Below are positions 6,229-62,908 of a stretch of DNA of 64,000 nt, piece after piece (within the stretch, counting starts at the first letter, position 1; the number at the start of each line of letters is the position of its first letter). The position numbers were made by a program, and so were the translations under genes. A model generated the notes under the pieces. It searched no databases. It was not told the origin of the DNA and saw only the letters and a list, made by a program, of their open reading frames with translations. The stretch spans positions 22,405 to 86,404 of the forward strand of contig LBTE01000005.1 of NCBI GenBank assembly GCA_000989955.1, given 5' to 3'. The DNA is from a candidate division TM6 bacterium GW2011_GWF2_37_49. Its GTDB lineage: Bacteria > Babelota > Babeliae > Babelales > RVW-14.

Positions 6229-6386
6229 GCTTTATTATGATAAATAGGTGCATACATTGATATGTTTGCTTCAAACCTTCGTATGTATCGGCTTTGCAAA
6301 GAAATTGGCAAGTTTTTAGATGCCAGCTTCCAGCACTGATTGGTTCGTAGTTGCAGAGTAATTTTTTTGAAAATTGTAAAAAGTCG
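6229..6386 (-). repeat. dispersed intergenic repeat family, copy R1 (reverse orientation)
   Basis: The reverse complement reads ACTTTTTACAATTTTCAAAAA..GAACCAATCAGTGCTGGAAGCTGGCATCTAAAAACTTGCCAATTTCTTTGCAAAGCCGATAC..ATCAATGTATGCACC, which are the same ordered blocks as the other copies. Boundaries are approximate. Confidence 0.75.
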
Positions 6387-6447
6387 AGGTAGTATTGAAA
6401 TATTTGATTGGCATGTTTTTGCGGAGCGCAGTGTTTGATGTGTGCGA

Positions 6448-7305
6448 TCAGATCGCGTAACCGGTGTTATTGAGTCTTAAAAGATTGACGCCTTTTTCTT
6501 CGGCCGTTCGTTTGAGATTAAAATATTCACGCCAGGCATGCTTTTTAAATTTGCTGCCATCAAAATACGGCAGTGAAAGCTCTCGGATGTCTAATCTTGA
6601 GCAGCATTCTTGTCCGGCCTTGAATGTTCTGTATCCTGGCCGCAAAAGAATGAGTGAGTCGATGTTTATCTTGCCAGTGTTTTTTATCAAAAATTGCCTT
6701 ATATCGTAATCGACGAGTTTGTCAACTGATTGATGCTTGTTAAAAAAGCCGTTGTCCACGAATTTTACTTTAAAATTTTCATCGATATCCACCATTAATT
6801 TGCCGTCGGCAAAACATTTTGTCGTATGTTTATGCACAAAATACGGGAATACTGTTAAGCCAAGTACGACAGAAAAAAGAAGAGTACTCATCGTTATTGT
6901 TTTAAATATCGCCGACTTGAAGCGGATTAAATATAAGATGCCGAACGAAAGAGTTGGAATCATAATTAAAATTGCTGTGTGAGGTTTATAAAAGCCGTAC
7001 AGCCAGCTTCTTTTGCCAAGTTCAAGAAAACTGATCCACGAGTGGGATATTATTTTTAAGATTGAAATCAAAAGTTGGTTTGGTATGTGCAAAATTTGCG
7101 CAAAAAAGATTAGCGAGCTGATGATCAAAAATGCTATTAAAACCGGAGCAAAAATGAGGTTGCCAACAAACGTCATAAGCGAGGTTGGCAGGCCCCATCC
7201 AACAAGTATCGGAATGGAAACAATTGAAACAACAAGCTGTGCTTGAATAAACGAGGTGATGTAGTTTGAGAAGTATTTGTAGGTCTTTGTTTTTAAATTT
7301 TTCAT
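6448..7305 (-). CDS. ComEC/Rec2-family membrane protein (short, competence-domain-like)
   Basis: The N-terminal half has several TM helices with the competence-domain pattern (FIQAQLVVSIVSIPILVGWGLPTSLMTFVGNLIFAPVL). The soluble C-terminal ~115 aa is not recognisably a metallo-beta-lactamase. Confidence 0.45.
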   Translation of the reverse strand: MKNLKTKTYKYFSNYITSFIQAQLVVSIVSIPILVGWGLPTSLMTFVGNLIFAPVLIAFLIISSLIFFAQILHIPNQLLISILKIISHSWISFLELGKRSWLYGFYKPHTAILIMIPTLSFGILYLIRFKSAIFKTITMSTLLFSVVLGLTVFPYFVHKHTTKCFADGKLMVDIDENFKVKFVDNGFFNKHQSVDKLVDYDIRQFLIKNTGKINIDSLILLRPGYRTFKAGQECCSRLDIRELSLPYFDGSKFKKHAWREYFNLKRTAEEKGVNLLRLNNTGYAI

Positions 7306-7310
7306 AAATT

Positions 7311-7401
7311 GCGTTCGTACCCGTTCGACTCCGCTACGCTTCGCTCAGGGCGAACGCGTTTTATTATCGTTCGTGGTGAGCGAAGTCGAATCCATACGAA
7401 C
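7311..7401. repeat. two inverted palindromic units (CGTTCG...CGAACG type) overlapping the 3' end of holB
   Basis: Unit 7311-7358 is GCGTTCGTACCCGTTCGACTCCGCTACGCTTCGCTCAGGGCGAACGCG. Unit 7367-7401 (..CGTTCGTGGTGAGCGAAGTCGAATCCATACGAACG) is an inverted, shorter copy. Each is closed by CGTTCG(T)/(A)CGAACG. A 13-nt fragment CACGAACGATAAT recurs at 50549-50561. Confidence 0.55.
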
Positions 7402-8172
7402 GACAGAAAAATCAAGGTAAAGCAGCTTCCAAAACAGGCCTGCGCTTCCTGATGCTGGCGGAGTTTTTAGCCGTTTTTGCACAATTTGTAGACCCTGGGT
7501 AAAGAATAGCTTCTGGTCTTGCAAATGTGGATCTGTGTAACAAACCGAAACTTTTTTTATAAAATATTCCATCAATGTTTGGCAGAGCTCTGTGCTTTCA
7601 TTGTCCGACAGATGCAGTTTTTTTAGCTCTTGATCAAAACTTACCGGCTCTGGTAAAGAATTTTTGACAGCAAAATATTTTAGAAGTTGGTGGTCTAAAA
7701 TTTGTTCTGAGTGAGTTTGTGCTTGTACAACGAACGATCGAGATAAAATGGTTGGCAAAATTAAATTTGTATTATCAGTCAAAAGTATGAAATTATAGCC
7801 AACAGGCGGATCTTCCAGCACCTTTAAAATTTTATTTGCGGATGCTGAGTTTAAGTTTTGTGCTTTATCTAACACGAAAAAAAATGATTGTCCATCGTCA
7901 AGTGCAAATCTTGTTTTATCAAAAATTGCGTCCATGTCATCGACGGAGTAGTCTTTTTCGGGGCATAACCACAATAAAAATGGGTGTTGGCGATTTTTAA
8001 TTTTTCTGCATTCCGTGCAAAAGCATGATTTCTGTAATGCAAAATCTGATTGTTGTAAGCAAAACCTGCTTTGCAACGCTATTTCGACAACATCTCTGAC
8101 TTTGTCGATGTTGCCAACGACCAGGCGCGTTGGAATTGGTGAATTAATGATTTGATTTGCTAATTTTTCCAT
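7345..8172 (-). CDS. holB: DNA polymerase III delta' subunit
   Basis: Cys cluster CFCTECRKIKNRQHPF, then VLDKAQNLNSASANKILKVLEDPPVGYNFILLT..ILPTILSRSF (delta' box pattern). Conserved tmk-holB gene order. The last ~20 codons (..VVRMDSTSLTTNDNKTRSP) are read from the palindromic repeat. Confidence 0.8.
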   Translation of the reverse strand: MEKLANQIINSPIPTRLVVGNIDKVRDVVEIALQSRFCLQQSDFALQKSCFCTECRKIKNRQHPFLLWLCPEKDYSVDDMDAIFDKTRFALDDGQSFFFVLDKAQNLNSASANKILKVLEDPPVGYNFILLTDNTNLILPTILSRSFVVQAQTHSEQILDHQLLKYFAVKNSLPEPVSFDQELKKLHLSDNESTELCQTLMEYFIKKVSVCYTDPHLQDQKLFFTQGLQIVQKRLKTPPASGSAGLFWKLLYLDFSVVRMDSTSLTTNDNKTRSP

Positions 8173-62479: not shown

Positions 62480-62488
62480 TTTATAACC

Positions 62489-62539
62489 TGTACGAAGAGG
62501 TAAGTTATTATTTATAATAAACGCTTATTTCTTCGTACA
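62489..62539. terminator. long imperfect hairpin between convergent genes (bidirectional terminator candidate)
   Basis: TGTACGAAGA ... TCTTCGTACA forms a 10-bp outer stem, with an inner TTATTAT/ATAATAA stem. The right arm overlaps the last codons of the 62525 ORF. Confidence 0.45.
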
Positions 62540-62722
62540 ATCAACAAGCCAGTTCTTTATTTTTTTGATCAGATGCTTGCCGCCGATGACATACAAACCA
62601 AACATGATTATTAAAATGCCAGGCAAAATTGGCAAAAAAAGCCCAGCTATGCCTATCAAAATACAAAAACTACCGACAAAAAGACTCAGTCCATTTTCCA
62701 AATTTTTTAACAGTTCATTCAT
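62525..62722 (-). CDS. small membrane protein (two TM helices; PGPGW/YbaN-like)
   Basis: 65 aa. ..LFVGSFCILIGIAGLFLPILPGILIIMFGLYVIGG.. Confidence 0.45.
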   Translation of the reverse strand: MNELLKNLENGLSLFVGSFCILIGIAGLFLPILPGILIIMFGLYVIGGKHLIKKIKNWLVDCTKK

Positions 62723-62764
62723 GAAAATTCTCCTTTTTCACCATATAATCAAACGTATGATTGC

Positions 62765-62908
62765 ATAAGTCATACATCAACGTATAATCACTATAACATT
62801 GAATTAATAAGGTCTACAGCGAAAACAATAAATTTTAAGATACGGCCTGCCACAACTGATCCAGAGCTAGCGTTCGAGCAAAATTTTCCAAAACTGCGCA
62901 AAGTAGCT
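62765..62908 (-). repeat. dispersed intergenic repeat family, copy R6 (reverse, diverged)
   Basis: The reverse complement reads ACTTTGCGCAGTTTTGGAAAATTTTGCTCGAACGC..CTGGATCAGTTGTGGCAGGCCGTATCTTAAAATTTATTGTTTTCGCTG..TACGTTGATGTATGAC. Confidence 0.7.

Follow-up and report, generated by a model that had tools for sequence, protein, structure and literature searches.

A probable miniature inverted-repeat transposable element family in the intergenic DNA of a candidate division TM6 bacterium

Introduction

[quoted passage not shown] Chunjie. These are non-coding elements of less than 500 bp in AT-rich intergenic sites, with inverted termini in the range of 4-30 nt, and they occur as a minority of complete copies and a majority of partial ones without termini or direct repeats. 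A review of prokaryotic MITEs describes the same architecture, and families in which many partial copies lack termini (PMC10969869). We have analysed a 64-kb stretch of DNA (hereafter the window) from the metagenome-assembled genome (MAG) of candidate division TM6 bacterium GW2011_GWF2_37_49 (TM6/Dependentiae, Babeliales), and find in its spacers thirteen copies of a repeat that shares all of these traits. Unlike the Chunjie-like MITEs, it has no parent insertion sequence or direct repeats that we could find and, unlike random MITE fragments, its partial copies all retain the same core of ~175 bp, in which blocks of sequence are strongly conserved. We argue that it is probably a lineage-restricted, non-autonomous, transposon-derived family of MITE type.

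The Dependentiae (TM6) are obligate intracellular parasites of protists and have small genomes. They have been described as poor in mobile DNA, with a single IS4 transposase in Babela (PMC4378268). DNA repeats go unmentioned in a comparative study of the Dependentiae (PMC4776705), and the literature that we searched holds no description of DNA repeats in this group.

Materials and methods

A preliminary description of the window had listed thirteen copies of a spacer repeat. We made an nhmmer profile from an alignment of these copies and ran it on the window and on further loci (those named below begin with L). A wider set of copies was obtained by scanning metagenomes with a pattern derived from the element, followed by the 13-copy profile. 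Termini were identified from multi-copy alignments, as a repeat search on single copies misses imperfect termini. Transposases were sought with Pfam in all open reading frames (ORFs) of the window, and pairs of termini in about 318 kb of the genome.

Results

The repeated spacer element of 160-180 bp is real. Scanning the window with the profile returned exactly the 13 listed copies, at E-values from 1e-29 to 1e-49, and the next match had E=1.2. Their alignment contains 15 invariant and 22 nearly invariant columns. The preliminary description had thus identified a genuine family, with coordinates accurate to ~20 nt and a fixed order of blocks that we also find; its picture of conserved blocks and variable linkers in a dispersed intergenic family is borne out. 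The boundaries need one correction, in that the conserved region runs ~20-25 nt further on the ATGGCAC side. The copies, named F in + and R in - orientation, and one feature within them are as follows.

6216-6407, - strand: R1, core only, between convergent genes (nhmmer E=9e-38)
19022-19216, + strand: F1, core only (nhmmer E=1.5e-43); a bidirectional terminator hairpin lies between it and the gene at 19323-20015(-)
24485-24677, + strand: F2, core only, between two - strand genes (nhmmer E=4e-44)
28558-28734, - strand: R2, core only (nhmmer E=5e-32), with a thioredoxin 3' end on one side and a glycosyltransferase 5' end on the other (Pfam)
31433-31714, + strand: F3, full length (282 bp) with both termini, core at 31500-31697
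31639-31663, - strand: within F3, an intrinsic-terminator hairpin with T-run, which shares the strand of the gene that abuts F3
34581-34767, + strand: F4, core only, the entire spacer between convergent genes (nhmmer E=2.5e-45)
37254-37401, + strand: F5, without the left half, homology beginning at the GC patch (nhmmer E=2e-29, profile positions 45-190); it occupies the spacer between convergent genes
40623-40887, - strand: R3, young subfamily
44894-45078, + strand: F6, core only (nhmmer E=3e-46), separated from the stop codon of the abutting gene by that gene's own terminator hairpin
50574-50754, + strand: F7, core only, 85% identical to F6 in the core alone
55628-55909, - strand: R4, young subfamily
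59165-59360, - strand: R5, core only, with a sibling-strain ortholog at L043 3052-3240
62732-62925, - strand: R6, a drifting copy directly downstream of a Rep_3-like gene, with an ortholog in L141/L142

Together the copies make up 28% of the intergenic DNA of the window and 3.8% of its whole length, slightly more than the ~3% given before. Of the 16 spacers that exceed 250 bp, 10 contain a copy, so the earlier statement that nearly every such spacer is explained by one was too strong; three of the six copy-free spacers are divergent promoter regions. Three subfamilies had been singled out as close, and core identities agree: 80% for F3/F4, 69% for F3/F5, 72% for F4/F5, 85% for F6/F7 and 92% for R3/R4, against 43-64% for every other pair.

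The genes of the window are those of a Dependentiae (TM6/Babeliales) bacterium, and an exact AsnRS match ties it to GW2011_GWF2_37_49. Outside the window the profile gave 49 matches; with the window included there are 62, and removal of duplicates left 57 distinct core sequences. The extra matches sit on JGI (Joint Genome Institute) contigs Ga0209417_*, Ga0075566_102 and Ga0209319, which exact protein matches assign to other parts of the same MAG; every match is in this MAG or in sibling strains, and at least 45 additional copies lie on other contigs of GW2011_GWF2_37_49. An independently chosen locus has 2 copies in 12 kb, which fits a density of about one copy per 5 kb. Extrapolated from that density, the whole genome would hold a few hundred copies.

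The R3/R4 subfamily is the key to the architecture of the element. Copies that are 88-95% identical to it occur at about 10 other places in the genome, in otherwise unalignable contexts. When these young copies are aligned together with their flanks, the similarity spans a unit of ~295 bp that is bounded by imperfect inverted termini of 28 nt, TAATACCATTC..., with TAATACCATTCCAAGTTGTTAAAGTACC on the left and, on the right, TAATACCATTCTAATTTTAAAATCTACC in reverse complement. The two consensus ends agree at 21 of 28 positions, and the outermost 11 are identical. Terminus 11-mers with at most two mismatches stand at the expected offsets on the left in six copies and on the right in six, with none in wrong-orientation controls. 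In F3 both termini can be seen, the left one, TAATTCCAATC, at 31433-31443 and the right one, GAATGGTTTTG on the + strand, at 31704-31714. Their 11-mers have 2 mismatches and offsets of -220/+51, compared with -222/+60 in the young subfamily. In R3 the right terminus is exact (40623-40650, reading TAATACCATTCTAATTTTAAAATCTACC on the + strand) and the left terminus is degenerate or deleted; R4 has a left terminus at 55882-55909 with 1 mismatch to the 28-nt consensus, and its similarity fades before the right terminus. A possible left terminus of R6 lies at 62982-62992 (2 mismatches), and R1 has no terminus-like 11-mer at the expected offsets. All ends begin with or abut TA; without an empty site, a TA duplication is inseparable from the repeat itself, and the strains compared offer no clean empty site for any young copy. 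The preliminary description saw no terminal inverted repeats, which is wrong for R3, R4 and F3, and its remark that the element is not an obvious MITE gives way to a ~295-bp unit bounded by 28-nt inverted termini.

Other copies share only parts of this unit. In L131 and L089 the right half alone matches the young subfamily and the left half comes from other subfamilies, the similarity of F6 and F7 is exactly the core, and identity above 90% among F3, F4 and F5 is restricted to the right ~115 nt. Such sharply bounded partial segments would be expected from truncation and/or gene conversion between copies. The family as a whole comprises a young burst of the ~295-bp unit, represented by at least 10 copies at 90-95% identity, and a majority of old copies, which have lost the arms and termini and kept the core.

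In the 57-copy consensus, this AT-rich core of ~175 bp consists of blocks that are at least 90% conserved, including TTTTTGCAATTTT, AATC, GC.GGC.G.ATCTAAAAAATT, GATGTAT and GTTTTG, and of linkers with conservation near 35%. The core profile contains direct repeats (CGGCAACCAGCATC, TTGCAGGCCGCATC, TTGGCAGAGCCGAT and CATAGTCGATGTAT), which are degenerate and irregularly spaced at 24-32 nt; they score 12.2, above the 95th percentile (9.8) of a column-shuffle null. A GC-rich dyad in the core likewise exceeds the column-shuffle null. Since the core holds both the direct repeats and the dyad, iterated protein-binding sites would fit. A site of the type bound by integration host factor (IHF), WATCAANNNNTTR, was considered and rejected, as the consensus sequence matches it yet no single copy does so exactly.

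Sibling strains carry orthologs of R5 (L043) and of R6 (L141/L142). Between the R5 orthologs the family-conserved columns are 83% identical and the linker columns 48% (p=7e-6). The arm just beyond the core is ~77% identical, which supports true orthology of this pair. The R5 pair indicates in-situ constraint on at least some copies, and this constraint is not uniform across the family.

Next to R5 (58986-59579 against L043 3000-5200) the strains differ by an indel of 125 bp, with the asnS terminator on one side and the element on the other. An extra gene, of 497 aa and without a Pfam match, is present here in the sibling strain, whose contig L043 stops ~80 bp short of the R4 position. Copies of the repeat seem to mark rearrangement sites and assembly breaks.

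Beyond these strains the family was not detected. It is absent from 1.17 Mb of DNA from other organisms, of which ~0.7 Mb comes from related Dependentiae (~35 genomes), and the loci compared in relatives at 81-83% AsnRS identity are free of copies. At the R6 site of a relative with a Rep-like protein of 46% identity, the convergent genes overlap and a copy is lacking. A blastn search of annotated plasmids and phages with the full-length element gave no match. Among viral contigs, 17 matches to the core pattern were discarded as chance, none reaching a profile match below E=0.75 and the terminus pattern being found 0 times.

The genomic context of 51 copies could be classified: 29 lie between tandem genes, 17 between convergent genes and 5 between divergent ones. 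All 13 copies in the window adjoin a gene 3' end, as had been noted, and genome-wide this applies to 46 of 51 (90%). The copies are also never inside a gene, although several abut or overlap stop codons. For example, the right arm of F3 overlaps the stop or last codons of the ORF at 31695-32318(-), and many genes end within ~30 nt of a core edge. The window had suggested a rule of orientation, with the reverse complement of the element following the gene stop; this was chance, as tandem contexts divide into 15 and 14 between the two orientations.

Two kinds of relationship to transcription terminators can be distinguished. At F1, F6, F7 and R5 the stop codon of the gene is followed first by its own terminator hairpin and only then by the element, so these copies are probably outside transcription units. 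F3, F4 and F5 contain hairpins (in F4 at 34707-34735 and in F5 at 37352-37376, the counterparts of the one in F3) that head the list of terminator-like sites for 28-46 kb, in the first three places, and lie on the strand of the abutting genes. This subfamily has converted the invariant ATGTAT block into a predicted intrinsic terminator for the abutting gene.

Some of the neighbouring genes deserve mention. Two AAA_14/DUF4143 ATPase paralogs, at 33435-34589(+) and 35903-37258(+), end exactly where F4 and F5 start, respectively; this family is multi-copy and widespread in Babeliales, and nearly 2000 homologs reach E<=1e-120. That F4 and F5 were duplicated together with these upstream genes was rejected, the proteins being only distant paralogs. 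F6 and F7 lie on either side of the gene for a 1760-aa ankyrin-repeat protein (45134-50416, - strand).

The Rep_3-like gene next to R6, at 62974-63813(-), belongs to a set of tandem paralogs of plasmid replication initiators of Rep_3 type, with 28-32% identity, which runs past the end of the window and includes L140 6257-7201, 9154-10008 and 10001-10840. Three divergent paralogs occur on a chromosomal contig together with housekeeping genes. The window ORF matches PF21205, shows 24-29% identity with annotated plasmid initiators in alignments that cover up to 93% of the ORF, and has only two word-sharing relatives among 5.8 billion proteins. A single-sequence AlphaFold prediction was uninformative (predicted local distance difference test, pLDDT, 36), and a search of the PDB gave no sequence match.

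There is also a second, unrelated repeat family in this genome, of GC-rich hairpin modules GGGTCCCCGCTTTCGCGAGGACGACG, sometimes with CATTCCCGGCTTGACCGGGAATCCAG. Its sites in the window are 8282-8343(-), 18452-18481(-) and 18811-18847(+), with three exact 24-mers where 0 are expected, and elsewhere it occurs at L082 2270-2318 and 2626-2662, L099 4976-5058 and L131 13521-13618. Two inverted modules flank a 105-aa GIY-YIG nuclease ORF (18530-18847), one of them forming its last 12 codons, and in L082/L127 an inverted pair flanks a copy of the family with the ~175-bp core. The hairpin modules and the GIY-YIG ORF may be a small mobile unit with ends that resemble repetitive extragenic palindromes (REPs).

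Four further genes of the window are worth recording. An 813-aa protein (41546-43987, - strand) consists of two complete D-alanine--D-alanine ligase units in tandem, a fusion conserved at 52-67% identity in many Dependentiae MAGs. A collagen-like (Scl/Lcl-type) adhesin gene at 60938-62479(+) contains nested tandem repeats of 9 to 216 bp at 61282-62037, which give multiple self-matches in contig comparisons. A 1842-aa protein (10763-16291, + strand) has no Pfam match, and a ParE-type toxin ORF (22751-23128, - strand) directly follows an acetyl-CoA synthetase gene.

Discussion

We consider the family in GW2011_GWF2_37_49 to be probably derived from a transposon and of MITE type. In the mechanism that we propose, a transposase acting in trans would recognise the termini and insert the unit, and truncation and/or gene conversion between copies would produce the mosaic ones. 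Insertion at gene 3' ends would be tolerated, and this would account for the persistence of copies there. The core blocks, among them the four degenerate direct repeats and the GC-rich dyad, would be sites at which the transposase or a host factor binds, which would explain why blocks outlast linkers.

Several of our results weigh against this proposal and should be considered together. A recognisable terminus is found in only ~20% of copies, and ~80% keep only the ~175-bp core. Both ends are present only in L067 and F3, and at no copy is a target-site duplication demonstrable. Nor were further terminus pairs found in about 318 kb of the genome, or a transposase or autonomous element bearing these termini in about 330 kb. 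Pfam detects no transposase, integrase, Y1/HUH or TnpB domain in any ORF of the window, in agreement with the preliminary description, which saw no transposase there. The full-length copies fold no better than dinucleotide shuffles (z=0.04 for L067 and -0.24 for F3), so that an unusually stable stem-loop, a typical if not obligatory trait of MITEs, is lacking here. Simple terminus-dependent transposition does not explain why F6 and F7 share exactly the core. Strong conservation of the blocks in old copies is unexpected for transposon relics that decay neutrally, and the R6 ortholog pair, which is less diverged than the R5 pair, shows no significant contrast (78% in blocks vs 66% in linkers, p=0.11), R6 having drifted from the family consensus.

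The strongest competitor, which overlaps with a MITE origin and is compatible with it, is a DNA module maintained by the host. The ~175-bp core would here be a phased array of protein-binding sites in terminator-adjacent spacers, retained by selection during deletion of the arms, and the binder could be a protein of the nucleoid-associated or insulating kind, or else one with a winged helix that is specific to the lineage. Blocks that are at least 90% conserved over 57 copies beside saturated linkers are what such a module predicts, as is the R5 ortholog contrast, and the direct repeats and the dyad are significant. F4 and F5 fill their spacers between convergent genes completely and leave no DNA to spare, and the lack of orientation bias is expected of a role at the level of DNA. 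However, constraint is backed by one orthologous pair and not by the second, in which R6 is visibly drifting, and an appearance of conserved blocks could arise by gene conversion from other copies. The binder is hypothetical, and no copy is an exact match to the IHF-type consensus. None of the relatives examined has the family, so a host role would be recent and dispensable for the phylum. On balance we regard this explanation as rather unlikely.

A more specific version, in which the core of a transposon relic was domesticated as a phased binding-site array for a lineage-specific DNA-binding protein that organises the chromosome or insulates transcription in terminator-adjacent spacers of a reduced intracellular genome, with selection preserving the array there, we consider unlikely. 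The tandem Rep_3-like winged-helix paralogs at the end of the window are, speculatively, candidates for the protein that binds the core. There are no iterons near the Rep_3-like genes, and the only tie to the copies is a single adjacency, 1 of ~60 copies. An iteron-type origin bound by a Rep_3 initiator, which calls for 17-22-bp direct repeats in tandem at the rep gene, was rejected, as the spacing of the core repeats is irregular and the three Rep_3-like genes have no such repeats beside them.

Small structured RNA genes, or RNA elements in 3' untranslated regions, would also give intergenic copies with conserved blocks, and the preliminary description had suggested a structured RNA. F3-F5 do have a strong hairpin and T-run, and some MITEs give rise to small RNAs (PMC10969869). 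Nevertheless, the core is not an RNA structure. RNAalifold on either strand, with 13 or 57 copies, predicts either no pairs at all or one helix of 2 bp (-0.36 kcal/mol), and minimum-energy folds of individual copies reveal no structure. The top mutual-information pairs among the 57 copies are not Watson-Crick pairs but same-base signatures of subfamilies. A general hairpin at the invariant TGTAT was ruled out, as stems of at least 6 bp occur in just 4 of 57 copies (F3-F5 and one other). Rfam 15 gave 0 matches at the gathering score over the whole window, and at E<=1 over 31.3-41 kb only chance matches of microRNA or hairpin type. With folding that equals shuffles, no orientation bias, and several copies beyond the gene's own terminator, an RNA function is very improbable.

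Coding and promoter functions were dismissed as well. No ORF is conserved, the six frames each averaging 2.5-4.4 stop codons per copy, which rejects a hidden small ORF in the core. Sigma-70 promoters are not enriched (50 sites vs 55 expected), and a sigma-54-like TGGCAG-N-GATGCA, read by eye, has the right spacing and a GG that is only 50-60% conserved.

Finally, an element of the REP/BIME (bacterial interspersed mosaic element) or IS200/IS605 type (REPIN, PATE), with a Y1 (HUH) transposase that acts on hairpins and not on inverted termini, would suit the many copies without termini and target duplications, the location at gene 3' ends and the modular, mosaic make-up, but there is scarcely any room for it, or for the REP/ERIC-type (enterobacterial repetitive intergenic consensus) element suggested earlier, given a core with neither a short GC-rich palindrome nor a conserved subterminal hairpin, young copies that bear 28-nt inverted termini, a mixed orientation of copies along the contig, and no Y1 transposase or TnpB in the window.

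If the family is the MITE-type one that we favour, its abundance has several implications. One element family accounts for over a quarter of the non-coding DNA of the window and has undergone a recent burst, so a reduced Dependentiae genome can still host an expanding transposon family. The copies appear to break metagenome assemblies and to mark sites of gene gain and loss between strains. For annotation, the family explains long spacers and its profile can serve as a lineage marker. The conservation of the core blocks also offers a tractable test of whether a host has co-opted such relics.

Among other known systems, the Correia/NEMIS elements of Neisseria are alike in their high copy number in a small genome and in the TA at their ends. 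They can supply regulatory signals, and here one subfamily supplies a predicted terminator. Correia elements are ~100-200 bp long and consist mainly of termini around a short centre; RNase III cuts the paired termini of their transcripts, and their outward promoters often lie beside gene starts (PMC10969869). The TM6 family, in contrast, folds at chance level, is depleted in divergent promoter regions and has no sequence in common with them. QMITE2 of Coxiella burnetii also resides in an intracellular host and lies mainly downstream of ORFs, as the TM6 family does, and SPRITE of Streptococcus pneumoniae carries a terminator-like sequence, a behaviour shared by F3-F5 (PMC10969869). The differences are that the terminator hairpin here is found in only 4 of 57 copies, and that QMITE2 and SPRITE belong to other phyla and have no sequence relationship to the TM6 family.

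The ERIC elements, also called intergenic repeat units (IRUs), and the Rickettsia palindromic elements (RPEs) resemble our family in being dispersed repeats of ~125-150 bp whose consensus is conserved and for which no transposase is known. ERIC elements and RPEs are imperfect palindromes, and RPEs often lie in frame inside genes and encode a peptide (PMC10969869). The TM6 core is non-palindromic, has no ORF and lies outside genes; a palindrome of ERIC or RPE type was rejected for these reasons and because folding is no better than in shuffles.

REPs are GC-rich palindromes of 20-40 nt that are moved by a Y1 transposase. REP/BIME systems with a REP-associated tyrosine transposase (RAYT) are similar to the TM6 family in their intergenic location, mostly at gene 3' ends, their mosaic composition and their presumed protein-binding role. 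They differ from its core, which is ~175 nt long, AT-rich and non-palindromic, and no Y1 domain is encoded in the window. The family in GW2011_GWF2_37_49 fits the published definition of a prokaryotic MITE (PMC10969869) in its size and termini, its position in AT-rich intergenic DNA, its copy number and its many partial copies that lack termini. It departs from typical bacterial MITEs in having a core that is not palindromic and is conserved block by block.

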